Assembly: GCF_033153115.1 (NCBI RefSeq)
Contig: NW_026889758.1
Span: 2,852,001 to 2,916,000, forward strand
Source of the DNA: Saccostrea echinata
Taxonomy: Eukaryota
Length of the DNA: 64,000 nt
Direction: 5' to 3'
Part shown: positions 729 through 18,238 of the stretch, one piece after another
How the letters are laid out: every line of letters starts with the position of its first letter
Position numbering within the stretch: position 1 is the stretch's first letter
The notes under the pieces: generated by a model
What the model was told of the DNA's origin: nothing
Seen by the model: the letters and a program-made list of their open reading frames with translations, nothing else
The model's database searches: none
Translations under genes and position numbers: made by a program

Positions 729-2430
729 GGGATTCAGGTTTGTTCAAATGAAGGGCCACGCCCCCCTCCAAGGGGAGATAATAACGAAATAGCAAAAAAT
801 AAATGGCATTATTGAAAAATCTTCTTCTCAAGAAATAATGGGCCAGGAAAGATGAAACTCATGTGGAATTATTGTCAGGTAGTGTAGACTCAAATTTGTT
901 CAAATCATGACCCCTCGGGGTAGGGTGGGGCCACAATGGACGATCAAAGTTTTACATAGGGATATATAGGAAAAATCTTCAAAAATCTTCTTCTCAAGAA
1001 CAGCAAAGCTATGATTGGTCATATTTATACGGAAGCATCCTCAGGTGGTGTAGATTCAAGTTTGTTCAAATCATGATCCCCGGGGGTAGGTTGGGGGCAC
1101 AATGGACGATCAAAGTTTTACGTAGGAATATGGGAAAAATCTTCAAAAATCTTCTTCTCAAGAACAGCAAAGCAATGATTGGTAATATTTAAATGGATAT
1201 TCCTCAGGTGGTGTAGATTCAAGTTTGTGCAAATCATAACCCCCGAGGGTAGGGTGGGGCCACAATGGACGATCAAAGTTTTAAATAGGGATATATAGGG
1301 AAAAAACTTCAAAAATCTTCTTCTCAAGAACAGCAAAGCTATGATTGGTCAAATTTTATGGAAGCATCATCAGGTGATGTGGGTTCAAGTTTATTTAAAA
1401 CATGACCCCCGGGGGTAGGTTGGGGAAGATTAAAGTTTTAATTAACATAGGAATATATATGAAAAATCTTCAAAAATCTTCTTCTCAAGAACAGCAAAGT
1501 TATGATTGGTAATATTTATATGGAAGCATCATCAGGTGGTGTAGATTCAAATTTGTTCAAATCATGACCCCCGGGGGTTGGGTGGGGCCACAATGGACGA
1601 TCAAAGTTTAACATAGGAGTATATAGGAAAAATCTTCTTCTCGAGAACAGCAATTTTGTCATTGGTCATATTTATTTGGAAGCATCCTCAGGTGGTGTAG
1701 ATTCAAATTTGTTCAAATCATGACCCCCGGGGGTTGGGTGGGGCCACAATGGACGATCAAAGTTTAACATAGGAGTATATAGGAAAAATCTTCTTCTCCA
1801 GAACAGCAATTTTGTCATTGGTCATATTTATTTGGAAGCATCCTCAGGTGGTGTAGATTCAAGTTTGTTCAAATCATGACCCCCGGGGGTTGGGTGGGGC
1901 CACAATGGACGATCAAAGTTTAACATAGGAGTATATAGGAAAAATCTTCTTCTCGAGAACAGCAATTTTGTGATTGGTCATATTTATTTGGAAGCATCCT
2001 CGGGTGGTGTAGATTCAAGTTTGTTCAAATCATGACCCCCGGGGGTAGGGTGGGGCCACAATGGACAATCAAAGTTTTACGTAGCAATATATACGAAAAA
2101 TCTTCTCAAGAACAGCAAAGCTATGATTGGTCATATTTATATGGAAGTATCCTCAGGTGGTGTAGAATCAAGTTTGTTCAAATCATGACCTCCAGGGGTA
2201 GGGTGGGGCCACAATGAAAGTTCAAACTTGTAGAGAAAAATTTCAAAAATCATGTAAGCATCCTTAGTTAGTGTAGATTTAATTTTGTTCAAATCATACC
2301 CCCCTCCCATTCACTTTTAGGGGTAGGTTGGGGCCACTTATGCATTTAAGGTTTTCAATACTAAACAGATTTTTCCTCTTTTTCTAGCCACAGTGCTCAG
2401 GTGAGCGATGTGGCCCCTGGGCCTCTTGTT
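572..2430 (+). mobile_element. Non-autonomous Helentron/HINE-like element carrying ~10 tandem copies of a ~155-167 bp satellite (Cg170-like)
   Basis: 5' TTTCTAGCTC..GCCGAAGGCTCAAGTGAGC hairpin followed by a GTC-type microsatellite. Tandem monomers (AATCATGACCCCC recurs at ~903, 1070, 1233, 1400, 1560, 1717, 1872, 2029, 2182). 3' GCTCAGGTGAGCGATGTGGCCCCTGGGCCTCTTGTT has a subterminal inverted repeat and palindrome. Confidence 0.8.
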
Positions 2431-3333
2431 TAGAATTAGATTTTATGGAATAATATTGCTAAAGTTGTAAATGTGTAAAAAGGTTGCCTTTTTTGCCTAA
2501 AACATCTGGTTAATCTGATTTAGATCTTTTGGCAAGTTTTATTCCAATAAGCTTTAAGTTGTTGCATAATTGTTTTGGATTTACACCTATTCTTCACCTT
2601 TGTGTTTCCATACATCTTTATGTGACGTCATAAATCAAAGGACTCTATAATTGACATCAGAAGAATAGCAGTTTATAAATGACACTAATAGTAATGTATT
2701 ATTTACGCAGCTATATTATGTAGGTACTTTATTCGAGACAATTATTGGACAAAATTTAACGAGTGGCTTTGAAGGTCAAAAATGTAAAACGTTAATAGTA
2801 ACGACAGACAGAAGGAAAATTTTTGATTCGAGAAAAAATAATTTGAACAAAAAAAAATTAAGGTAAAAGAAGGGAAAATTAAAGTAGGTCAAGATCATAA
2901 GGTTAACAGATTGGACATGTTTGGCAATAAATTAAGCAAGACAGAATTTGTTGTTCCAATGAGAAACGCTATATGGTGAAAAATTGAGGAAAGACGGACG
3001 AAATTTATCTAACATATGAGTCAAAAAGTGATATTTTGAGTTTTATTTTCAATATTCAATTCTTTCTGCAAATCTAAGCCCATCGACTGAAAAAAAATTT
3101 CCTTAAAGCAAAGTCATCTTATGCAGTGGAAAAATATAAAACCACGAAAATGACATAAAAACTTATATTACATGTATATTACATTTTTATCATCAATTTC
3201 TCTTTTGATAGAAAAAGAAACAAACAACTGTTTAATTATAATTAATACTTTAATAGTGTAACAAAGATAACTATATACATACATAAATATATATGATAGA
3301 AAACAGATAAAACACCAAAATAAATCTACACGT

Positions 3334-6300
3334 TTAATACTTTGACGTCCTGCGTTTTGAATACTGATTTATCTTTTGCAATGAATTTTGGAACAGCTGA
3401 CTTTGGTGTAGCACAGATGAACCAAAAATAACAGGTTGAAAATGTAAAGGAAGAAGAGGCTTCAGGCCCATAACATGTTTGTTGACTTGTTGTTGGATGA
3501 TATTAGGTTGCATAGGATACGGTGTGATAAAAGGTCTTATTGATAGGTTTGATGAAAATCTTTTTCCATACAATGGACGACTAGAATATCTGTTACCGTA
3601 AGTATTTTTATATCCATACCCCCGATTTCTTTTGTAGGGTAGATGAGGTGTAGTTCGGTAGCTGTGACCATAACCTGTTTTCTTATCATACGAATTCCTA
3701 GTGTTCAAACCATAACCATATCCTGGTTTTTTATCATATATTGTCTTCAAGCCTCGATATCCGTAACCATAACTATTTTTTCCGTAGCCATAATTCTGTC
3801 TTTTACTGTACGGATTCCTTTTGTAATACCCCTTATTAAGATTTTGTTTGTAGCTATTGGTCCAGGCCTTTTGTAAGTCGACATTCATAATCTCGTTTTC
3901 TAAGACATCATATGAAGACACTTTCTTTGATTTCGTTTTCTTTGGTTTGAACATAAAATAGAAATGCTGCTGTTTTTGTTTGGGTGCAGGAGCAGGAATT
4001 GGTTTGTTTGGTATATAAACTCTCGGTGTCGGTTCTGGTTTAGGAACAGGTGGCAGATTAATAGGGATTCTCCAAATTTGTAACCTCGGTGTTGGTTCAG
4101 GTTTTGGAGGAGGTGCAATTGGTGTTCTTAGAATTTGTAATTTCGGTATTGGTTCTGTTTTAGGAGGGGGAAGTGTGGGGGGAGGGAGAGTAAGGGGAGG
4201 GTTAGTCGGGGGAGGAAACGTTGGAGGGAATATTGGTGTTCTTAAAATTTGTAGCTTTGGAATAGGAGGGGGAGGGGGAGTTGTAGGGGATGGAGGTATA
4301 TACGTTCTATGAATTATTGTTCGAGACGGAGAAGGGGGAGGAGGAGGGGTAGGAGATGGGGGAATATAAGTTTTATGTACTATTGTTCGAGGCGGAGAAG
4401 GGGGAGGAGGAGGAGGAGTGGTAGGTGTTGGGGGAATATATGTTCTATGTATTATAGGAGGAGAAGGGGGAGGCGGGGGTGGAGGAGTAGGGGAGTGTAT
4501 TATCGGCTGAGGCGGAAAAGTGGGAGGTGGAGGAGGAGAAGGCGCCAGATAGGTTCTGTGTATTATTGGTTGAGGAGGATTTGTAGGGGGAGGGGGAGGG
4601 GTAGTTGATGGTACTGCATATGTTCTATACATTATTGGTTGAGGAGGAATCACTGGAACTGGAGTTGTTGGTTCGTAATTAATTCTGTTGATTTGGAGAT
4701 GATTGACCTGTAATGTTGGTGGGATGTATTCTATCGTATTGTCATCATCATTATATTTATGATAGATTCTACTTTCCTCTTGATATCTATTGTGATGTTC
4801 ACTTTCCCAAGCATGCTTGTCGAAGAAATTGCGATAATGGTTAACATTATTCTTTGGTGGATGTGCTTGAGCAGCGATGGGCAAGTGTTCTTCACTGCTT
4901 TTGTGGTAATCCTCAGCTGACGAGTAGTACTCCTGGCTGTAAGATTCAGAACTATCATCTTCCCACATATGTGCCATACTGTGACCAATCTCTTCGCTTC
5001 CTATTTCTTTACTTCCACTCTCCCCATCGCGTTCGTTTGATGTTGATGAAGACCTAATTCGAGACTCTGAATAAGAAGTAGTTCTTGTTATGCCTTTGTT
5101 ATGCTTATGATGTGGTGATAATGTCTCTTCACTACTATAATCGTCATATTCTTCACTTGCGCTCTTGTCATAGTTTATGTCTTTTCTATGCTTATAATGT
5201 GGTGATAAAATCTCTTCACTACTGTAATCGTCATATTTTTCACTTCCGCTGTTGTCATCGTTTAATTGGTGGAAAAAATCACTTCCTTTGGTTGATTTGC
5301 GATAAGCCTCTCTCAGCTTATTTGCAAATGCCACTGCGTCTTTTGCAACAAAGCGTTTGTTTTTCCATATACCCCCTGCTGAAAGGTTTTCCTTGGATTC
5401 ATCAACATAGTCATCACCTTCTCGACTTTCTCCATCACTATCAACATGTTTACCTTTATACGATGCAACAGTTGAGGGCGTTTTATTTGAGGAATCCTTG
5501 CTATATAGCTTTTTGTTCACCAATTTATATTTTGAAGACCGATCGTCATATTCGTCGACGTAATCTGGGGTATCCTCATATTGGTAATCAATGTCCTCTC
5601 CACTTTCGAAACTGTCGCCCTCTTCATCATGCCCAAAGTCTTTAACATAAAATGGTACTTTAAAGGAACCTTTCTTGTTCACTGGGTTTCTACTGTATGT
5701 CTTTTTATTAGGTACTTTAACCTTTGAAGACCGATCTTCGTATTCATCAACATAATCTGGAATATCCTCATATTGGTAATCAATGTCCTCTCCACTTTCG
5801 AAACTGTCGCCCTCTTCATCATGCCCAAAGTCTTTAACATAAAATGGTACTTTAAAGGAACCTTTCTTGTTCACTGGGTTTCTACTGTATGTCTTTTTAT
5901 TAGGTACTTTAATCTTTGAAGACCGATCTTCGTATTCATCAACATAATCTGGAATATCCTCATATTGGTAATCGATGTCCTCTCCACTTTCAAAACTGTC
6001 GCCCTCTTCATGATATTCAATGTCTTTAACAGAAACTGATTTCCCATAGGTAGCCTTATCATTTGATGTGCCCCTATCGTATGACTTTTCATCAAACATC
6101 TTAGCCTTTGCAGGCTTTTCTTCATTTCCATCGGTATAATCAGGGTTGTCCTTAGATTGATAATCATAATCCTCTTCATTTTCCAAGCTGTCATCCTCCT
6201 CATAATCGTACTTTCCGTCAATCTCAGTATGTTTCTCATTATAATGTTGGTTCGATATCTTTCTCTCAGGCTCGAGAGATGGCACTTCTTTTCTTTTGGT

Positions 6301-7629
6301 TATTTTGTCTGGGATTTGAAAACTGAAGAAATCTTTCCAGAGTAGACTTTCCAGCTTTCCATCTTCTACATTCCCTGCAGTATCAACACTACTAGCCTCC
6401 TTGTTTTCAGTTGCATGACTTGGTGTGTGATAATGATAATCGTGATCTGTTACTAGAGCGTGTGGTTCTTCATTTTCATTTATTCTCTTGTCTTGAGCAA
6501 CTGATTCAACTTGACTTTTGGGTATGAAATTCCATTTCAGGTTAAATAATTCATGATGTGGTTCTATCCGATTTTCGGGTTCCGATTTCCAATCAATGGT
6601 TTTTGATTCATGGAGTGGCTCAACATGACTTTTGGGTGCGAAATTCCACTCGGTGTTTTCTGGTTCCTGGAGTGATTCCATGGTTCTGTCGGGCGTAAAA
6701 ATCCATTCCGTGTTGTCTGCTTCGTGATGTGGTTCTGCCTGATTTTCGGGAGTATACATCCAATCAACATTATTTAGTTCTTGTTTCCCACCAAGTACCC
6801 TTATTATAAAGTCTGAAATATCATAATCGTCATCTTTTTCTTCTCTGTTTTCATCTCTTTCTTCAATGAGGTCTTCGATATCATCTTCGGATAGAAGTTC
6901 TTCATTTTCTTCATTCGTATTTTGTGAAATCCTTGTTCGAATAATAGGCGATTCGCTTTCAAATAAGCGTACAAAATTCAATAATAAACTTGTATTTTTA
7001 TCGCTTCCTATATTTACTGAATAATTTGCATTAACTGAAGAAAATTCTGAGGTGTTATTGACTTTTGTAGGTGGACTGACCTGTTCTTTATATTGTTTGA
7101 ATTTTGACAAAATATTTTGCAAAACTTTTCCTGGAATAACTTGAATTGTGTCATCTCGAGTGTCATTAATGTTTTCAGTGCTGTTACTCGAAATCCTTTC
7201 TTTTATCATTGAACGAAGTTTTCGTATCTTCTGCAGGAAACTTTGTATTTGTTTTAAGCGAATTGCATTGGTCTTTTTTAAGCGTATGCTATTATTCATC
7301 ATCATCTTTGGTTGTTCACGCGGTGCATCGTCTGCAGTGTTATTAAATTCATTATCAGGACTTTCTGCAGTGACAGATACGTTAAGTAAATGCGAATCCA
7401 ATGTGTCTTTTGACTGATTGAATGTTTTTACTTTGTTTACTTCTATCTCTGGATTTAGTTCTTGTGGGTCCGTAGGTTTTGCCTGCTGTTCATGCTCTGT
7501 TTTTGATGATAAGTTTGTTGGAAGTGTTGACGCAAACGCACTGGCTGTGGTTGCCGTAACCATGGTGGACGTTGGAGCGCCATCTACCAGGACTGCAACC
7601 AGCAAGACTGACGTAACAAAGCTCAACAT
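3334..7629 (-). CDS. Large secreted low-complexity protein (1431 aa), shell-matrix/adhesive-like: signal peptide, Trp repeats, acidic/basic 64-aa repeats, Ser/Tyr/Glu region, poly-Pro extensin-like region, basic Gly/Tyr/Lys/Arg tail
   Basis: 4.3-kb uninterrupted ORF in AT-rich DNA. The ATG at 7629 directly follows a splice acceptor (TTTCATTGCAG|ATG), so an upstream exon probably exists. Hydrophobic N-terminus MLSFVTSVLLVAVLVDGA. Internal repeats keep the reading frame (192-bp units). Stop TAA at 3334-3336. Confidence 0.88.
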   Translation of the reverse strand: MLSFVTSVLLVAVLVDGAPTSTMVTATTASAFASTLPTNLSSKTEHEQQAKPTDPQELNPEIEVNKVKTFNQSKDTLDSHLLNVSVTAESPDNEFNNTADDAPREQPKMMMNNSIRLKKTNAIRLKQIQSFLQKIRKLRSMIKERISSNSTENINDTRDDTIQVIPGKVLQNILSKFKQYKEQVSPPTKVNNTSEFSSVNANYSVNIGSDKNTSLLLNFVRLFESESPIIRTRISQNTNEENEELLSEDDIEDLIEERDENREEKDDDYDISDFIIRVLGGKQELNNVDWMYTPENQAEPHHEADNTEWIFTPDRTMESLQEPENTEWNFAPKSHVEPLHESKTIDWKSEPENRIEPHHELFNLKWNFIPKSQVESVAQDKRINENEEPHALVTDHDYHYHTPSHATENKEASSVDTAGNVEDGKLESLLWKDFFSFQIPDKITKRKEVPSLEPERKISNQHYNEKHTEIDGKYDYEEDDSLENEEDYDYQSKDNPDYTDGNEEKPAKAKMFDEKSYDRGTSNDKATYGKSVSVKDIEYHEEGDSFESGEDIDYQYEDIPDYVDEYEDRSSKIKVPNKKTYSRNPVNKKGSFKVPFYVKDFGHDEEGDSFESGEDIDYQYEDIPDYVDEYEDRSSKVKVPNKKTYSRNPVNKKGSFKVPFYVKDFGHDEEGDSFESGEDIDYQYEDTPDYVDEYDDRSSKYKLVNKKLYSKDSSNKTPSTVASYKGKHVDSDGESREGDDYVDESKENLSAGGIWKNKRFVAKDAVAFANKLREAYRKSTKGSDFFHQLNDDNSGSEKYDDYSSEEILSPHYKHRKDINYDKSASEEYDDYSSEETLSPHHKHNKGITRTTSYSESRIRSSSTSNERDGESGSKEIGSEEIGHSMAHMWEDDSSESYSQEYYSSAEDYHKSSEEHLPIAAQAHPPKNNVNHYRNFFDKHAWESEHHNRYQEESRIYHKYNDDDNTIEYIPPTLQVNHLQINRINYEPTTPVPVIPPQPIMYRTYAVPSTTPPPPPTNPPQPIIHRTYLAPSPPPPPTFPPQPIIHSPTPPPPPPPSPPIIHRTYIPPTPTTPPPPPPSPPRTIVHKTYIPPSPTPPPPPSPSRTIIHRTYIPPSPTTPPPPPIPKLQILRTPIFPPTFPPPTNPPLTLPPPTLPPPKTEPIPKLQILRTPIAPPPKPEPTPRLQIWRIPINLPPVPKPEPTPRVYIPNKPIPAPAPKQKQQHFYFMFKPKKTKSKKVSSYDVLENEIMNVDLQKAWTNSYKQNLNKGYYKRNPYSKRQNYGYGKNSYGYGYRGLKTIYDKKPGYGYGLNTRNSYDKKTGYGHSYRTTPHLPYKRNRGYGYKNTYGNRYSSRPLYGKRFSSNLSIRPFITPYPMQPNIIQQQVNKHVMGLKPLLPLHFQPVIFGSSVLHQSQLFQNSLQKINQYSKRRTSKY
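5430..6200 (-). repeat. Coding tandem repeat, 192 bp / 64 aa, ~3 near-perfect copies plus one degenerate copy
   Basis: GAAGACCGATC recurs at 5534, 5726 and 5918 (period 192). Unit EEGDSFESGEDIDYQYEDIPDYVDEYEDRSSKIKVPNKKTYSRNPVNKKGSFKVPFYVKDFGHD. Confidence 0.92.
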
Positions 7630-7865
7630 CTGCAATGAAATTTAAAAAAACATGTTTGAAAATCATAAGATTCGGTTGAGACGTAATCATTCATCTGCGA
7701 AATATTCAGATAGAATGTATCTATCACTTTTTAATTAAAATTACATTAAGCAATGCAAAAAGAAGAGACATATGATTAGAGTGGCATCAAGTTAAAAGCT
7801 ATTTTAGATGACAAAAATGATTAACTGAACGCAAATCAGATAAAACTGTATAAAAATGAAATCTT

Positions 7866-8036
7866 TAAAAAAATATTTAAAAATAAAAGTTTGATTATTA
7901 TTTAGTAAATGTATATCTGTATAACGGGCTCGGGGTTAGAATATTTTTTTTAAAAAATATTTAAAAAATAAAAGTTTGATTATTATTTAGTAAATGTATA
8001 TCTGTATATCGGTCTCGGGGTTAGAATATTTTTTTT
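7866..8036. repeat. Local tandem duplication, ~86 bp x2
   Basis: AAAAAATATTTAAAAATAAAAGTTTGATTATTATTTAGTAAATGTATATCTGTATA..CTCGGGGTTAGAATATTTTTTT occurs twice back-to-back. Confidence 0.85.
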
Positions 8037-10846
8037 AATTATAAAAATATCAGTTTCAAACATGCTTGTTGGCCATATGATCATCGATGTAATTTCTTCG
8101 CATTTCCAATATTTAAGTTTTATAATATTCGTTGCAATATGCTCTGGAATCTTTCCTTTGGGTACAATAATTTGTCGATCTGTATCGTTAACTTCTAATT
8201 TTATTCCGTTAAAGGCCCCTGTTATGGTTTCTTTGGTCAGTGTTTCAATTCACATGCATATTTCAATTACAAACGATCTGACAAAAGTTTATGAATAAAG
8301 TTAATGTATTTAATAGGACTAGTTTTATGCACTGCCCTTAAAAGAAAACTATGATGGGTTGGCCTTTCAGGAAAAAAATTAATAAACCAAAGTGACCGAA
8401 TTTTGATTTGTTGATGTTTTTAACCACACCTCTTTCTGAGACAGGTGAGTTGATTTAAGATTTTGACAAGTTTTCCGTCAGGTTTGACGGTTCATGATTG
8501 ACCCAGAAGTTCCGATTGAGTTATAGCTCCATTGCAAATATAATTATTATTTATTTTGAGAAACAAATCGTTATTTTTATCGGAGATATCATTTGCATGT
8601 ATAATGACCCATTAATTCTTTCTGATTTATGGCTTGGCTAAAACAAATCAGTATAGTATACCTCAAAAAGTACACAATTTAACATTTTTTTTTATAAAAG
8701 AAAGACGTTTAAAGTACGTTTGTATGTCACTATATCCATAAGAATTATTCAAAAAGTCAGTGTAGTAAAGAAATAAATATTGATATTGAGAAAATGTAGA
8801 TTATATGAACATAGAAATGGAGGGGGGTCAACATTATTATATGTATCTGAAAAATCATTAGTTTTTTGGGTGGTGGGGTGGGGGTTGATTGGTTTTTTTT
8901 TTTAAAGATAATACTATTTCTAGCATATGCTTATTTTAGAAGATTTTAAGATATTACTATGTATGCAAATTTATTAAGTTCAAGTTTTGAAGATATTTCT
9001 ATGCTAAGAGCATAATTATTTTAGTGTTTTAATGCTATTACTATGTAGAGCATACTTTTTAAAGAAGCTGTGAAGATATAAACTATGTAAATCCTTTTTT
9101 CACAAACAAGTTAGGTTGCTTTTATTTTTATCCCATTTTGAATTCTTAAGTGAGATGTAAAATCAAAATGATGAAGATTACGTTTAATAAGTATTAGGAT
9201 TTCTGCAGAAATGTTCAACACCCATTTACATGAACAGATCAAAAAATAAAGAAACTGCATGCACTTTACCAATTCAAGGATATTTTTTTAATATCATATA
9301 GAATAGTAGGCATTAAAGGTAAAAATATTTTTAAACTTATTTTGACTTACTGAGAATTGTGATGCTCAAGTTACATTTAGATAACAGTAAATTCCGTCGT
9401 GTAAGTGAGTTAACATTGTAATTTTTCAAAGTCAGCATACAATAAATACACAACATAGCCAAGTATTTTTGTTATAGAAAAAAGTTTGGACCTTAACATT
9501 TTCACCAATTTAAACTTATAAAACTACTTCAAGCTGAAGACTGACCTGTCTGCGTCCTCTGGTAATGACCAGTTTATTTTTAATCAAGTATAAAAAGTAA
9601 GTACTAAATAAGTATTTCAGTGCCACATGTCAAATATTACAACGAGGATAATCCAATATTACAATCGCATAATTAATATTGGCATCCTGCTTCAACGACA
9701 TATGACAAAATAAAGAATTTATTTATTTTTTTTTTTACAATTTTAAAGCAGTCATAATTATTACTTAATTGTTGTTATAGCAATGACATGCTGTAATGTC
9801 AAATTCGTGTGAAGTGAATATTCAAAACTGATATATATATTACTGAAGTACTATTGCTACATGTAACTGTTACTATGCATATCAAGCCCAGACATGTACC
9901 CTCTCCTCAACCTACTACCACCCTGGCGGCCAATTTTTCTGAAGATTAAAAGCTATTAAAGAACATTATTTTCTTGGATTTACTTTAGAGCTTTAAAAAG
10001 ATAACTTTGTTATTTAAATTTTAATTTTTAGGAAATAACTACTTAAATTTTAGTTGATTGCAATTACGTTTGTACTTACAATGAGTACTGAAAACGCGAT
10101 AAGTATCCAATATTTTAATAAATGGAATGGTATACCTTTTATAAAACAGTGCAGTACTTTTAAAAAGCTAGGAAATGATCACTGCACCGTGACATGTGCA
10201 GTTAATCGATCAAATCAGCGGAAGATATTTTTTTACAGTATCAAAATATACATTGTACATACCCTTTTGCCTGGAGTCCCGGTAGACTTTTCACTTCAGC
10301 AGTCCATTCATCAAATAAGTTAAAAACCAAACTCTCCCGAGTAAATTCTCCAGTGGCCCTGTGCCTTACATACTAATGAGAGAAGAAGGAAAGCTCTTCT
10401 GTGGTCACATTATTATTGGTGAATCTAATTAATACCAAATGATCGCCATAATTAGACATAATTGAGGGGGAAAGACAAAGATAAAAGGTTTCAAATGAAT
10501 CAGTTTTAGGATTTTGATTGGCAGTGAATATGGTTTTCAACTCTATAATAATTTGACTTGAATTTTAAATTTAATTGCAGTGTGTGTAAATATAGTAAAA
10601 ATCATGATATTTTTATTTATTATTAGCAATATATTTATTTAAGGCAGAGTGTAATTGCTGTGAATTTAAAATCGTCAAGCCCTGTTACATTTTGACACAA
10701 GTACAAACATACAACAGATGAAGGACTACCACTTTGTTTAACTCTCTAACTCTATAACATAAAATTAAATTAATATTATACATTTATAAAGAATAGATTT
10801 TATTGAAGTTTCTAAAAATGTGTTTTGCTTTTCAAAAGGCGTTATA

Positions 10847-13800
10847 TTATACCAATAAGTTTAAAAGTTTTACTTCTTTAAATTCACATTTACAATGTGA
10901 TGTCGGACATTTCGGACAACTTTGTAAACACCACTGAATCATTCCCGGAACGGAACGCCAACGCTTAGTAGGGCGACAGTTCATTTGATTGGCTTTGTTT
11001 TTAACCATGTCAATGTATTTTCCGCTTCCTTTTCTTTTCAATTTTGAAACCATATCTTCATCCGATATTTCACTGGTATCTTCACTAGATTTTTTGTTGT
11101 CGGTTTCTTCTGAGTCTTCTGTTGAATCTTTTTGTATGATTTTTATCTTCTTTAGGATGCTTATGTCAGCACAGTTGTAGAATTGTTCTTGTGGACCAAG
11201 CCCAATACCACATCCGCTATCACCACAACCCCAGCTGTTACCTGAATGAAAAAAAAATGTTTTCTTTGGTAAACTTTGCATCAAGCTGAAATTTATTTCC
11301 TTGAAGAGGAATCAACCTGGTACTAGATGTTGGTCTGTGACTACATAGAAATCCTGATTGTATTACCTGCGTTATATTTCCATTGAAGAACACATTTTTT
11401 GCATGAAAAATCAGATGGCAATTTGATCCTCAATGAAATCAGTTTCTGTTTCCCAACATAAAACCTCTTGACGGTTCTTTTCCCTTTGTTATTGGGTAGT
11501 ATACGTAATACATTCTTATCTAGGCACTCCTGGGTGACAGGTTGGTCACTGTTGTCATGGGAACAGAGTTTGAACTCCATCCATCCTAAGTGGTTGGCAG
11601 TTAGATTGACAACAACGTCAATATCCTCACCGGAGCGATACGTTCTGATTACGACCCCCTTTCCAAAGAACCCACCGTCCTCGTTAGGGCGGGGTGGCAG
11701 AAGATCGTAGGCGTCCCCACAAATACCACATTTACCGCCATTCTGAGTCCAGTGGCGCTAGAAATAAGGCAGAATATTAGTAACATTTAATACAATCCCC
11801 TAGGAATGAATTGTCACGTCTTTATCTTCAACATCTCTTTTATTGTTTTCTCTTTTAAAACATTCTCTTTGTCTTCTTTTGAAATAAAAATAAAATCATT
11901 AGTAAGATAAAAAGTTTTTTTTTTTAAATATTTTATTCTGTTTTCTTTGGATCTGCAAGCAACTGAAAAATCAATTAATTATCACCATTTAATCCTTTTT
12001 TATGCCCCCGTATCGAAGATTGGGGGTATATAGTTTTTGCCCTGTCCGTCTGTCTGTCTGTTTGTCCGCAAAAACTTTAACATTGCCCATAACTTTTGAT
12101 TGGTTGGAGCTATGACTTTCATATTTCACATGTGCATTCCTTGTGACAAGACCTTTCCTTGGGCACCCTCATATTTGACCTTTTGATCTTGACCTTGGAG
12201 TTTGACCATCTTTTACAAAATTTTATGAGACTTTAACCTTGGCCATAACTTTTGAACAGTTGGTGCTTTGGGTTTCAAACTTCATTTGTATATTTCTTGT
12301 GACAAGACCTTCCTTTGGATACCAACAACTTTGACCTTTTGATCTTGACCTAGGAGTTTGACCTACTTTTGAAAAACTTTAACCTTGGCCATAACTTTGG
12401 AAAGGTTGGTGTTAGGGTTTCCATTTTTAAAATGTCAATTCCTTGTGACAAGACCCTCTTGGATACCAAGCACTTTCACCCTTTGACCTTGGGGTTTAAC
12501 TTACTTTTGAAAAACTTTTATCTTGGTCATAACTTTTAATCATTTTGTGCTAGGGCTTTCATACTTCACATGTGCATTCCTTGTGACAAGACTTCCCTTT
12601 GGATACCAACAATTTTGGCAGTGACCTTGACCGAGGAGTTTTGAACTACTTTTAAAAAACTTTAACCTTCGTCTTTACATGTGAACGTTTGGTTCTAGGG
12701 CTTTCACATTTCACGAACATTGTGTATCACTAGTGACAAGACCTTCCCTTGGGGCCCCATTTGACCTTGACCTTGACGTTTTACTTACTTTTAAAAAACT
12801 TAAACCTTCGCCATAACTTTTGAACAGTTGGTGCTAGGGGTTTCAAATTTCACAGGTATATTCCTCGAGACAAGACCTTTCTTTTGGTACCAACATTTTT
12901 GATCTCTTGACCTGGAGTTTGACTTGCATTTCAGAAACTTTAACCTTCGCCATAAGCTGTCATACAGGGGACATCAGTATTTCACAAACACATTTTGTCT
13001 TTTTAATATCACGACGTATATTTTTCAATTCTTATAGTTTAGCATATATATGCAAAACATATGCTAAACTGTCTCGGACATTTGTTTAAGTTCGGTATGA
13101 TAGATAGACACAGCAAGTAAATGATGATGAATTGGATAAAGCTTGTTTTTTTCATGATTTTGCATGTCCACAGCGATGTTTCTTTATAGCTTCATAAGCA
13201 CGTGACACATCAGCAGGGCAGTTATCATGAGTTCAAAGAGGTCAAACTATTTCATTTAAACGCAGTCCTCATCATATTTTTGCTGTCGATACCGCCTTTC
13301 CACGCACTTCAATAAACAAGTATTTTGCGCGGTGGAAAAATGATGAATGTCACCTCAATGATAACTCAAGGTCGAGACGCCCCAAAGAAATGAAAAACAA
13401 TATTAAAATTTGTCTCTTCAACTGAAAAACGGTACCATTCGTCACTCTTAATTAGTAGCAAAATTTCATCTCTTAAAGTAGTTCTCTAAGTTCGTGCCTC
13501 TTAGTTCATTTTCGTAATAAAGTCTAGATGGGAAGTTTTTTTTTCCCCCGTGACTGCTGATACATGCTAAGAAGACTATTGAATCTATAGCTACAAAGTA
13601 AACGAGCATCAGAACTCAAAACTTTATAACCATTGATACCCTAAAAAAAGAAGAAAAAAAAGTTGTACAAGGAGATAATGAACCTAAAATTGTTGTAATA
13701 CGACTTATTTGAATTATAATTTATAATAAGTTAAACAAAGATACAGTGCCATATCAAATATCAGAGCTTCCAATTAAAGCCCTTATTTCATTAGCACAAG

Positions 13801-15853
13801 ATAGACAATTGTCATGTACATGTACTTAGTCCAATTCTAAAATACCAAACGTGTTTTTTTAGTTAAATGGTAAGTTTCTCAGAAAAAAATCCCTTTTCTA
13901 TCCAAAGCTTTGAATCGTTTAAAGCGATGAATTTTTTTAATGAAATTCTGTAGATTAAAAGTAAAAAAGTTTTACGCCTCCTTATTGCGATCGATCAAAG
14001 AGAATCTTTTATAAAAATACCAGGAAGTGAGTGAAAAACTTCAACCTCTAAACAAGATATCAAAGCCTGGATCAAAATAGCAACTTCTTCTGGAGAAAAA
14101 CTTAGTTCTAAATAGCACCTAAAAGTATAAGAACCAGATGTTTAAGAATATCAATGATATTAATTTTTTTTTACCTCTTAAAGAATTTAATCTCTTTTGA
14201 CTTTTTACCTATCTAGTATGTAAAAATAGATTTGGTCAGGATACCGGTGTACCTGACCTGACTACAGATATGTGGGGATAAAGTGACCCAGCTTAAGTTT
14301 ACAGATGATATACGTTACTAATGCGGTCTATTTATAAACATCATCGTACATCAAAATGTATTCTTTTACGTCTTTCCTAAAAGCAAGTCGTCCAGTTGAC
14401 GAAGCATATAATTTATAGATAATTCATCAACCGGACAACAATTAACAGGACACAATTAATTTGTCCACTGTAAAAGGTCAACAACTGAATTATACAATGC
14501 AGTTGATTAATATTTTCTGAATGTTTAAAATGAATAAAAAAAATTAAAAAGCATATAGCCATAAAGATAGAGTTGTGTAAACCGATAACCTTTTAAAGGA
14601 TTTTTTAATCAACAGGTAAATTCATCAAAGCTTTGCAACTGAATGTGTAAATTAATGTCATTGAAGAATGTATTTGTTTTAGGATCTACAACATGACTTG
14701 TTATCTTAAGAATGTTAATGCACGTCCTTATAAATTCTTTTGTGCATAATGCCCTATTTGTCTAAAAATTATTAAAACAGACGAATAATTTTTCCATACA
14801 AAGTTATATAACTATTGGAGTTGAGTTACAGTTTAAAAGACGAAAAATAAGNNNNNNNNNNNNNNNNNNNNNNNNNNNNNNNNNNNNNNNNNNNNNNNNN
14901 NNNNNNNNNNNNNNNNNNNNNNNNNNNNNNNNNNNNNNNNNNNNNNNNNNNNNNNNNNNNNNNNNNNNNNNNNNNNNNNNNNNNNNNNNNNNNNNNNNNN
15001 AATTTTTTCCCCTTAAAATCTTTTGTATCCAGTTCATTATATCTAAATCTCATTTCATTTGTAAATGTACTAATTCTACATTTAACAATTGCTTTGATTT
15101 TAAATGCCATCATACTAATTAAGTTTAATTTTTTTTCTAGTGAACTAAATAGTGAGAAAGCTAAACCGTGAAAGATTTATGGTGCGTGCATGTAATTGTA
15201 ATTTTCTACTGACAGAGGTCGTAAAAGTAAGCAGTAAGGTGGGACATTATCTGAAATTTATTATAAATACTTTAGTAATAGTAGACATTATATATGATTA
15301 AACGTGTATTTTCTACCCTCCCTTCTTCCAATCAAGTGTTCTGATTTTTTGAACTTATTTCAGCAGAGAAAACATATCTTTATGACCCCTGAATTCAAAT
15401 CAAGTTAATATTCATCACTTAAGCAACGTTAAATATTGATTCTATCATTGCATATTAAAATCTACTTTAATCAATTTTACTTTAAAGTTTAAATATTAAA
15501 ATTATTTTAAGTTATGATTAAAGGTGAGATTAAAAAATATCGTATATATCATCCAAGTTTTTACCTTATTGGAAGTGTAAAACATTTCTTATTACAAAAG
15601 TGATTGTTTTATTTAAACTGGTTGATTTCATTTTAATTATAAATGTCTGTGAATCAACCATCCCGCCACTCACCTTAAATCCGCCACAATTAAGGGCGTT
15701 ATCATTGTAATTATCAGGCCCGAGTCCATGTCTCCAGAGAGAGGAACGCTGGGGTGGTTCCACGAGGTATCCATGGCCTTTGGTTCTAGGAAGGCCGTAA
15801 AATATCACGACAATCAAAATCCAGAGCCAGCGCATACACGGAGTCCACTGCAT
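10847..15853 (-). CDS. Lytic polysaccharide monooxygenase, AA15 family (chitin-binding type-4 domain), 321 aa, with C-terminal six-Cys module; exons 15674-15853, 11367-11757, 10847-11241
   Basis: A 26-aa signal peptide precedes His1 (G|HGYLVEPPQRSSLWR). Family motifs NYNDNALNCGG, NGGKCGICGD, LTANHLGWMEFKLC, CVLQWKYNAGNSWG and GPQEQFYNCADI are present. GT-AG junctions are phase-compatible (0 and 1) and give an intact frame. Confidence 0.93.
11995..12998 (+). mobile_element. Second HINE/pearl-like non-autonomous element with ~6 internal ~130-157 bp tandem repeats, in LPMO intron 1
   Basis: 5' TTTTTATGCCCCC..GGGGGTATA hairpin then a (GTCT)n microsatellite. Monomers contain CCTTGTGACAAGACC and TGACCTTGACC. 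3' GGGGACATCAGTATTTCACAAACACATTTTGT. Confidence 0.75.
14852..15000. other. Assembly gap (149 N) in LPMO intron 1
   Basis: Run of N. Confidence 1.
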
Positions 15854-18238
15854 CTTGACTGTGTGCAACCATCGGAAACCAGAGAAATTTAAATAAAATT
15901 GGTAAAGAAGGAGGAAGGTGTTTACAAAGGCCAGACTTATTGCAACTGCAGGGTATGAATGTGTATCACACAATGCACAGAGTCTTTTGTGGGTCAAAAA
16001 TACCGGCTAGCGACGTTTCCATATGAACTTTGTGACCTATACCTTAAACATCTGAGATTTGGGTCTGTTTGGGGGTAATTAATAATAAACTAACAACACG
16101 GTCGAATGTCAAAAGGCATAGGATGAGATCATTACAACAGAGGTATAAAACTCATCAAAGGGATAAGTCAGCAAATCTTAAACAGAAACTTTTTAAAACA
16201 TTCAAATATCATTTAAGCCAAGACAGATTTTTAAATTCACTACATACGAGTGAGAGAGAGAGAATATAGTGGTCAAGTTAGTCTAAGTTCAATTTCCTTT
16301 ATTTCACTTTGCTAATTTACATGCTGATATTTATGGCTTGAATTCATAGAATCCTAAACAACCTGTATTTCGGGGAATATTAACGGACACCGGAGACCTA
16401 GAATGACGGTAAATTGGACACTCTGCAAATTCTAAGAATTATGAAGCTTTAATTTAATAAGGTATATCAGGATTAAAATATATGTACTGCTTTTGAATTG
16501 TTCTTAAAAAAGGCCATTCAGGGACAGCGATTGAAAAGTTAAGTTCACAAGAAAAATCATTACACTGTATTCATTTCAAAGGGATGATAAATTTTATAAT
16601 CCATTGTATAACTTAAGCTGTGACATTCATAAAAGTTTCTGTTAAGCCACAAATATTTGTATTGTATTTTAAAGTTGTATGTGTGTGAGTGGGGAAGATG
16701 GGGGTAGAAAAAAAATGACAATTTACCTGAAAAATCTTTGTCAAGCCCTAAAAGGGATATTTGTCCAAACTCGTAAAATCCCATTTCGTGAGGAGTGGAT
16801 GGGGTGGGTGGGGGAGAAAAATTTTGAATATTAACATGAAATGATTTAAGTATTTCGTAACAAAAAGAGGTGGTCAACTGGCCTTTCAATGATCATTTTC
16901 ATACTAAATCAACGATGAAACGATAAAAAATTATGTTCGGAAAAGGGGTAGCTGCCCCTATACTACGTTCCTGTATACACACCGCTAATTTTATACTCAT
17001 CTTAGAGCGTATTGATTCCAAATTTTTGATTTTACGTTGGTATAATCATTTAAATTGGATAGTGCATTTTTATTTCCATGATATATAAGGTTCAACAAAC
17101 GAACCTAATGGTTTCCTCAGGCAAGTCTGACGTCGTCCTTCCCTAGTGACACAAGTACATTTTAGGCGACTCTCATCACGAATCTAAAGTCTGAATAAGA
17201 CTTTGTTCGTAACCCTTCAGGATAATACTCAAACCATGCACTTATTATAGCTAAATCACAATTGAGTCATTGTTAAAGTAAAATTATTTTCACTCTAATG
17301 CACTATTTATCTGTAATTTTATAATTAACGCTGATTTAACGATATTTTTTGTCTCATAAGAACATTAGACAAATAGTATTAATATTTATGGGTACATTCA
17401 AAATTTCGATTTGATACTTGTAATATTTGATCTGTGATATGAACCTTATCGGGCGCGTTATTCAAGGTAGTCCCTACCATGGCAAAAGAAAGCAAAGCAC
17501 AAAGCACAAACAGGTATTTGAAAGAACATCATGAAGATCACAAAAACTTTATTAAGTTACCCCACCCCCAATTTATTAGGTATATATTATCCAGAATATT
17601 TTTGCTATTTAAACTTTAGTTACCTTAAGCTAACACAAGATTTTCACTTCAATTTTAGCCATTTTGTTGTTGTTGTTGTTGTTGATTTTATGTTCTTATT
17701 TCACATACATTTTGAATAATATACTTCTCTGTTTATAAGTAGCATGTTTGACATATAGGAAAAGTTTTATTTTTTATTTAATCATACGTAGTACTTGATT
17801 GCACAACATATACTTAGACAGTACAGAATATTTGTTTACAAATAAAATATTAAGCTAGATCTTATAATAAACAACACAAAATAAACACTGCATGGCCTGT
17901 CTAAAAAAAGAGATTTTTCAAAAATTAAAAAAAAAAATAAGATTGAATGGGGTGAAATGAAATGATTGAACCTGCACAAAATTTGTTCTCTGGGCGTTTT
18001 CTTTGTTTTAAAATAAGTTAACGTACATGTATGTGTTTCGAGTGCAAAACTAGTATTACATTGTATATTAATAAACAATGTAAAGATTTTCAGAAAACTT
18101 TATTTGATGAACAAATTGATATCATTTCTTACATCTATTATTATCACTTATTAAGTTGCTTTCATTAGAAATCATCCTTGATATATACACTGTTAAAGGG
18201 TTTAATCAAAATGGGTCAATATTTCTTATCGCTTAACA

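Follow-up and report, generated by a model that had tools for sequence, protein, structure and literature searches.

A predicted secreted, charge-segregated block protein restricted to oysters and its candidate role as a matrix scaffold

What can be said of the function of a long, repetitive oyster protein that contains no recognisable domain and has no named relative? This question is raised by a 64,000-nucleotide stretch of the Saccostrea echinata genome (NCBI RefSeq assembly GCF_033153115.1, contig NW_026889758.1, positions 2,852,001 to 2,916,000 of the forward strand; hereafter the window, with positions counted from its first letter), in which a first-pass annotation had described, at 3334..7629, an apparently Cys-free secreted protein of 1431 amino acids built like a block copolymer. 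Position and length were borne out: the frame is a single open reading frame (ORF) on the minus strand, running from 7629 to 3334 and encoding 1431 residues plus a TAA stop (P0001, 163 kDa). Our results indicate that P0001 is the product of a real transcribed gene, single-copy in the source genome, that it is largely disordered and secreted by prediction, and that it belongs to a family whose order of blocks is conserved among oysters. The role that we favour for it, a mantle-secreted scaffold of the shell framework, periostracum or cement, is weighed below against the alternatives.

A transcribed gene and its oyster relatives

The transcript evidence comes from run X1, whose contigs span the frame from 3332 to 7630, with 25 of 30 bins covered and two short gaps at repeats. 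One of these contigs carries a 45-letter loose end at 7630, 30 letters of which find a single exact match in the window, at 10264-10293 (0 matches in 100 shuffles). This match, together with the GT...AG intron, places the coding sequence on one exon and the gene on two; thus, the earlier statement that everything lies on one 4.3-kb exon holds for the whole coding sequence but misses a second exon, which belongs to the 5' untranslated region (UTR). The splice joint is seen in one contig of one run; no source is on record as RNA and the library type is not on record. Run X2, from another organism under the same study code, contains a diverged copy of the gene. An N-terminal extension through exon 1 was considered and rejected, as each of the four ATGs upstream, in exon 1 and the sequence flanking it, runs into a stop before the donor. 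At the other end, a hexamer of the polyadenylation type shares letters with the stop codon (3333-3338, minus strand) and others lie 80-100 nt downstream (3236-3254). An X1 contig that stops at 3332 hints at a very short 3'-UTR, although contigs cannot fix an end. The P0001 sequence is also present in NCBI/UniRef, and four protein searches of the source genome (10, 1, 18 and 4 candidates scored) led to the P0001 locus only, with no paralogue. The tandem repeats inside the frame could have been taken as a sign of a spurious long ORF, but the spliced transcript and the conserved orthologues with intact frames have already refuted this reading, whose probability we consider negligible.

The first-pass annotation recognised no named orthologue and none was found, but unnamed ones exist. 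Relatives made up 3 of 7828, 3 of 7989 and 2 of 7993 candidates in three word-indexed protein searches, for which a set of 5.8 billion proteins was searched in length windows of 580-2505 amino acids, and a phmmer search with P0003, free of any length limit, gave three matches over 1.84 billion representatives, all of them members of the P0001 family. The orthologues are annotated as uncharacterised in Saccostrea cucullata (XP_062605215.1, 1653 amino acids, 72% identical to P0001), Ostrea edulis (XP_048735569.2 / LOC125651010, 1041 amino acids) and Crassostrea virginica (XP_078315209.1 / LOC144619843, 1293 amino acids); two more bear no species label, P0003 (1056 amino acids) and P0029 (1324 amino acids), and group with the Ostrea and Crassostrea proteins, respectively. 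In the tree (P0020,P0029),((P0001,P0002),(P0003,P0006)) the three inner branches all have 100/100 support, and its pairs match the three oyster subfamilies. No relatives beyond this protein family appeared in the protein sets searched, and 594 and 15 pattern matches from scans of metagenome contigs for the family yielded none that was confirmed. Nor did the literature searched contain a paper with any of five family accessions or either of two family motifs, or, in topic searches, a description of the family, with the qualification that supplements of bioRxiv preprints and of subscription papers on oyster cement may bear on this. On these sequence comparisons, the P0001 family is a previously undescribed, oyster-restricted one with a conserved block grammar, but of a known kind of protein.

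Identity between lineages is 23%, and conservation is gathered in short islands that make up about 22% of the residues. All six proteins keep the signal peptide, the order of the blocks, in line with the block-copolymer build first proposed, the short helical islands, the alternation within the Pro block and a terminal [K/R]Y, which persists despite the last ~100 residues hardly aligning. In every one of them, two segments of net negative charge come after the N-terminal cap, and the final two segments are net positive. The cap itself is rich in N-x-S/T sequons: within the first ~190 residues of the mature chain there are 8-13, where 3.7-5.2 would be expected (matched in 0-30 of 2000 shuffles), whereas sequons outside the cap are below expectation, clearly so in three to four of the six. 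S-x-E motifs are enriched in the middle of all six (11-31 against 4.8-9.9 expected; 0-8 of 2000 shuffles), including two orthologues without repeat expansions. Family lengths range from 1041 to 1653 amino acids, with different blocks expanded in each lineage: the Trp and 64-residue repeats are confined to the Saccostrea pair (the D/E/Y unit occurs five times in P0002 and is not expanded in the other four orthologues), and a long Ser block is found in P0020 and P0029. The lack of Cys, correctly reported for P0001 (0 Cys; a chance of ~6e-7 at 1% Cys), is not a family trait, since P0003, P0006 and P0029 have one Cys in the mature chain and only the Saccostrea pair and C. virginica have none. That Cys belongs to a K/E-D-C motif located 37-42 residues before the C-terminus, and could give intermolecular disulphides in those lineages.

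Charge, disorder and block architecture

The acid-to-base gradient of the first description turned out to be a step. Charge is strongly segregated in P0001 (sequence charge decoration z = -21.6 against 200 shuffles), but the cumulative charge drops to -84 at residue 967 and climbs thereafter, so that residues 235-967 have a net charge of -87 and residues 968-1431 one of +49, with the near-neutral cap in front. The disorder analysis proposed together with that of charge patterning points to disorder in all six orthologues, 89-98% of whose windows are negative in a composition-based index. No globular domain was found by any of three routes, as the first pass had supposed. Pfam gave no family for P0001 at E<=1, and the YihI and DUF6049 matches, each in one member among the six orthologues, were discarded as compositional; a profile search of the Protein Data Bank had no match among 177,635 sequences; and AlphaFold2 returned a predicted template modelling score of 0.19 for full-length P0006 (10 alignment rows) and 0.16 for P0001 residues 19-470 (8 rows), with no residue at a predicted local distance difference test value of 70 and the islands modelled as isolated helices in an unfolded chain. 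The best score in the ESM Atlas was 0.79, all scores being below the 0.9 threshold for a lead, and residues 900-1431 had no usable match. Secretion is suggested by the N-terminal 19-mer, the only strongly hydrophobic stretch of P0001 (Kyte-Doolittle value 1.93; next best 1.06), and in all six orthologues the only 19-mer to pass this hydropathy test starts at residue 1, consistent with an N-terminal signal peptide and no membrane anchor.

P0001 contains 10.9% Pro, 9.4% Ser, 15% Asp plus Glu and 12.6% Lys plus Arg; Gly amounts to 3.5% of the whole protein and 9% of the tail. The blocks named in the first pass, that is, a basic amphipathic helix, an acidic stretch, Trp repeats (five), D/E/Y repeats (three of 64 residues), S/E/Y/H repeats (two of 29) and a basic Y/G/K/R/N tail, are all present (Table 1). 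Its ~230 residues of poly-Pro correspond to a genuine Pro block, although not a pure one: over 277 residues it is 36% Pro, with a longest run of seven and basic or aliphatic spacers of 5-10 residues, and DNA-level tandem repeats cover part of it.

Table 1. Features of the P0001 gene, of its predicted product and of the rest of the window
Feature	Position in window	Strand	Basis or remark
Exon 1, 5'-UTR only	10263 to ~10308	minus	5' end not fixed; 10308 taken from the 45-letter loose end
Intron, 2633 nt, GT...AG	7630..10262	minus	Splice joint in one X1 contig
Exon 2, complete coding sequence, 1431 aa	3334..7629	minus	ORF and X1 contigs; ATG directly after splice acceptor
Predicted signal peptide, residues 1-18	7576..7629	minus	Conserved 6/6; cleavage probably after G17 or A18
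Near-neutral N-terminal cap, residues 19-219	6973..7575	minus	11 N-x-S/T sequons vs 4.5 expected
Basic amphipathic helix, residues 124-146, within cap	7192-7260	minus	Second-highest hydrophobic moment
Two conserved helical islands, residues 214-234 and 265-283, flanking acidic stretch	6781..6990	minus	First ends in basic cluster
Five ~19-aa Trp repeats, residues 286-372	6514..6774	minus	Expanded only in P0001 and P0002
Conserved island, residues 415-447, LLWKDFF core	6289..6387	minus	64% identity between lineages
64-aa D/E/Y repeats	5531..6035	minus	192-bp period, 2.6 copies at 94%
Ser/Glu/Tyr/His block, residues 734-920	4870..5430	minus	Densest in S-x-E motifs
87-bp x2 repeat (29-aa S/E/Y/H units)	5088-5264	minus	DNA tandem repeats
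Conserved aromatic helical island, residues 923-964, at acid/base switch	4738..4863	minus	Alignment and predicted structure
Pro-rich basic block, residues 970-1216	3982..4722	minus	Short runs of Pro separated by I/L/V/K/R/Q/T spacers
Conserved island, residues 1234-1270, EIM..DLQKAW core	3820..3930	minus	64% identity between lineages; two helices predicted
Basic Tyr/Gly/Lys/Arg/Asn tail, residues 1266-1365	3535..3834	minus	Composition, alignment
Basic C-terminus ending KY	3337..3357	minus	[K/R]Y ends 29/29 family proteins examined
LPMO-family gene, three exons	10847-16006	minus	PF03067, E 3.4e-12 for middle exon
Homeobox gene, three exons	52718-55271	plus	PF00046
156-bp tandem array	875-2216		8.4 copies, 85% matches
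138-bp tandem array	12230-12955		In LPMO intron
40-bp tandem array	58121-58969		21 copies, strong GC skew

The concentration of conservation in isolated islands, and the basic clusters that follow islands 214-234 and 415-447 in most orthologues, would also suit a granin-like precursor, in which low-complexity blocks pack granules and are cut away while the islands are released as active peptides. We hold this to be improbable. P0001 has no R-x-K/R-R site, the islands are not flanked on both sides by basic clusters, and the clusters vary (RTR in P0001; P0003 lacks one behind the second island). The family also keeps its block order, its Pro spacers and its terminal [K/R]Y, which points to the use of the intact chain.

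Likeness to known proteins and possible function

P0001 has the sequence features of a loose class of molluscan low-complexity matrix proteins, and does not belong among the shematrins, KRMPs, extensins or SCPPs. With the matrix proteins that carry repetitive low-complexity domains it shares the predicted signal peptide and lack of a membrane anchor, repetitive low-complexity blocks, disorder and the absence of a globular domain, and its family is likewise lineage-restricted and fast-evolving, as the three phmmer matches and the low identity illustrate. The more specific likenesses are partial. Plant extensins carry Ser-Pro4 repeats with Tyr cross-link motifs, and P0001 resembles them in the way its short Pro runs alternate with basic spacers, some of which contain Tyr and His; yet SPPPP occurs 1, 1, 0, 0, 0 and 0 times in the six orthologues and the Pro block is less than a quarter of the chain, so the resemblance is convergent at most. 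Like the acidic phosphoproteins that are substrates of Fam20C (the molluscan MSP-1 type, the vertebrate SIBLING/SCPP proteins, enamelin), P0001 is S-x-E-rich and, by prediction, disordered and secreted, and enamelin is a weak look-alike by features (score 0.76, under the 0.9 threshold). No homology to these proteins was found, however, nor any sequence match to vertebrate SCPP/SIBLING proteins; P0001 adds a polycationic half of its own, and its single large coding exon differs from the many small ones of vertebrate SCPP genes.

Shematrins and KRMPs of Pinctada carry basic residues and a final Tyr at the C-terminus (PMC3896809), and P0001 is like them in being low-complexity and predicted secreted, with a basic Tyr/Gly region and a basic C-terminus ending in Tyr. 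A basic end with Tyr is found in all six family members, but none of them has one of the five pentapeptides listed for the RKKKY-type signature of shematrins. Shematrins are built of Gly-rich GnY repeats (n = 2, 3; PMC3896809), whereas P0001 has no GGY and little Gly; KRMPs are of ~10 kDa with a Lys/Trp domain right after the signal peptide, whereas the first Trp of the far larger P0001 is at residue 290; and the long acidic S-x-E half and the Pro block belong to P0001 only, with no sequence match. The fusion of extensin-like and shematrin/KRMP-like modules proposed in the first pass therefore survives as a resemblance, in which only the basic C-terminus with its Tyr matches the shematrin/KRMP signature, but not as a composition of those modules, given 0-1 SPPPP, no GGY and no Lys/Trp domain.

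Taken together, these likenesses lead us to propose that P0001 may be a mantle-secreted, phosphorylated, disordered and self-associating polyampholyte scaffold of the shell framework, periostracum or cement, a reading drawn from sequence and analogy to which we give an even chance. Its signal peptide would direct it into the secretory pathway, and N-glycosylation of the cap would keep it soluble. A Fam20C-type kinase would phosphorylate the S-x-E middle and turn it into a strong Ca2+-binding polyanion; Fam20-family kinase matches occur at two loci of the source genome, and Fam20C, which phosphorylates S-x-E, peaks in the Pinctada mantle edge (PMC5824888). The Pro block might serve as a stiff spacer, so that an acidic block would tend to pair with the basic tail of another molecule; the protein would then condense, and its short aromatic helices would be the sticky patches. 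Finally, the Tyr/Gly/Lys tail may bind chitin, as does the Gly/Tyr region of KRMP-3 (PMC4498902), and be fixed by tyrosinase or peroxidase cross-links.

Several observations weigh against this scaffold. The sole transcript source, run X1, carries no record of tissue or stage. Two family motifs are absent from a supplement with gene-model sequences of C. gigas larval shell proteins (PMC6231486), and a comparison by eye of P0029 with the peptides of 52 adult C. gigas shell entries gave no match (PMC5854119); as P0029 bears no species label and proteins that are modified and cross-linked readily escape detection, both negatives are weak. Non-mineral secreted proteins can likewise have S-x-E motifs and basic tails, Gly is low, and the 100 kb to either side contain no cluster of similar matrix genes among ORFs of at least 130 amino acids. 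Net charge differs within the family (-35 in P0001, +16 and +17 in P0003 and P0006), and YG is enriched in the tail of only four of the six orthologues. The structure predictions come from shallow alignments of 8-10 sequences. Besides, the six-protein set includes P0001 and segment borders were picked after the alignment had been seen; the six being three related pairs, the counts given above are not six independent tests. The family motifs were likewise not found in the available supplements of PMC6193008, PMC5379566 and PMC10543319, which may hold no sequences.

The missing shell peptides would be expected if P0001 were instead a structural part of a non-mineral extracellular coat, such as a chitin-containing gut or gill lining, mucus, or an egg or larval coat, in which the polyampholyte would condense without any role in calcification. 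The sequon-heavy cap and Pro/Thr block are mucin-like, eggshells and cuticles also contain low-complexity domains of this type (PMC4498902), and the nearest gene, on the same strand and ending ~540 bp before exon 1, belongs to the lytic polysaccharide monooxygenase (LPMO) family. On the other hand, P0001 has no Cys-rich mucin domains, and the S-x-E enrichment, the D/E/Y richness and the shematrin/KRMP-type C-terminus suit mantle matrix proteins. We regard a coat function as rather unlikely, though deserving of serious consideration.

In sabellariid tubeworms, cement is packaged through the coacervation of phosphoserine-rich proteins of opposite charge (PMC12621633), and P0001 shares with this cement oppositely charged blocks suited to coacervation and putative phosphoserine and Tyr. 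In the tubeworms, however, the charges reside on separate proteins (128-405 amino acids in the table rows available; PMC12621633), whereas P0001 has both in one chain, together with a Pro spacer and conserved helical islands, any adhesive role being putative. The scaffold might take a narrower form, that of a single-chain coacervate precursor conserved across Ostreidae and underlying the attachment cement or chalky calcite of oysters: a polyanion of phosphorylated S-x-E, Asp and Glu and a polycation of Lys, Arg and Tyr would be split by the Pro spacer, with the glycosylated cap as a solubility tag. We put this forward as a speculative and doubtful extension. Alternatively, the protein could be a component of the glue of the pediveliger foot, expressed briefly at settlement. 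The species-labelled members do all come from cementing oysters, putative phosphoserine and Tyr/Lys blocks are typical of marine glues, and 21 pediveliger-specific C. gigas genes are given as hypothetical, by identifier only (PMC6337334); but no identifier ties the P0001 family to that list in the part available, and the family motifs are absent from the two supplement files that accompany a proteome of larval footprints (PMC6193008), which may not hold all sequences. A larval glue is, in our judgement, a quite unlikely function.

Neighbourhood of the gene and meaning for oyster biology

The LPMO-family neighbour has a signal peptide with a His after it and, at the C-terminus, a Cys-rich module, and is presumably a member of AA15. 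The homeobox gene, 45 kb away, has an eh1-like motif and a Lys at homeodomain position 50, and we assume that it resembles goosecoid. To the left of the window, a large multi-exon plus-strand gene (contig positions 2831965-2847811) shows, by eye, a VWA-like exon and many long fibronectin type III-like exons. The 156-bp array lies inside a repeat with structured ends and resembles the Helentron-associated satellites of oysters, and the 138-bp array is similar to it; the long stop-free minus-strand frames of the 40-bp array look non-coding.

If P0001 turns out to act in the gut or in a coat, it would be one more lineage-restricted low-complexity protein. The proteins of adult oyster cement and chalky shell, for their part, are poorly known, and disordered, heavily modified ones are easily missed by proteomics. 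The P0001 family offers a single-copy, oyster-restricted candidate, with accessions from three genera and testable predictions of glycosylation, phosphorylation and condensation, in which the order of blocks and the modification motifs are conserved while sequence and block length vary.

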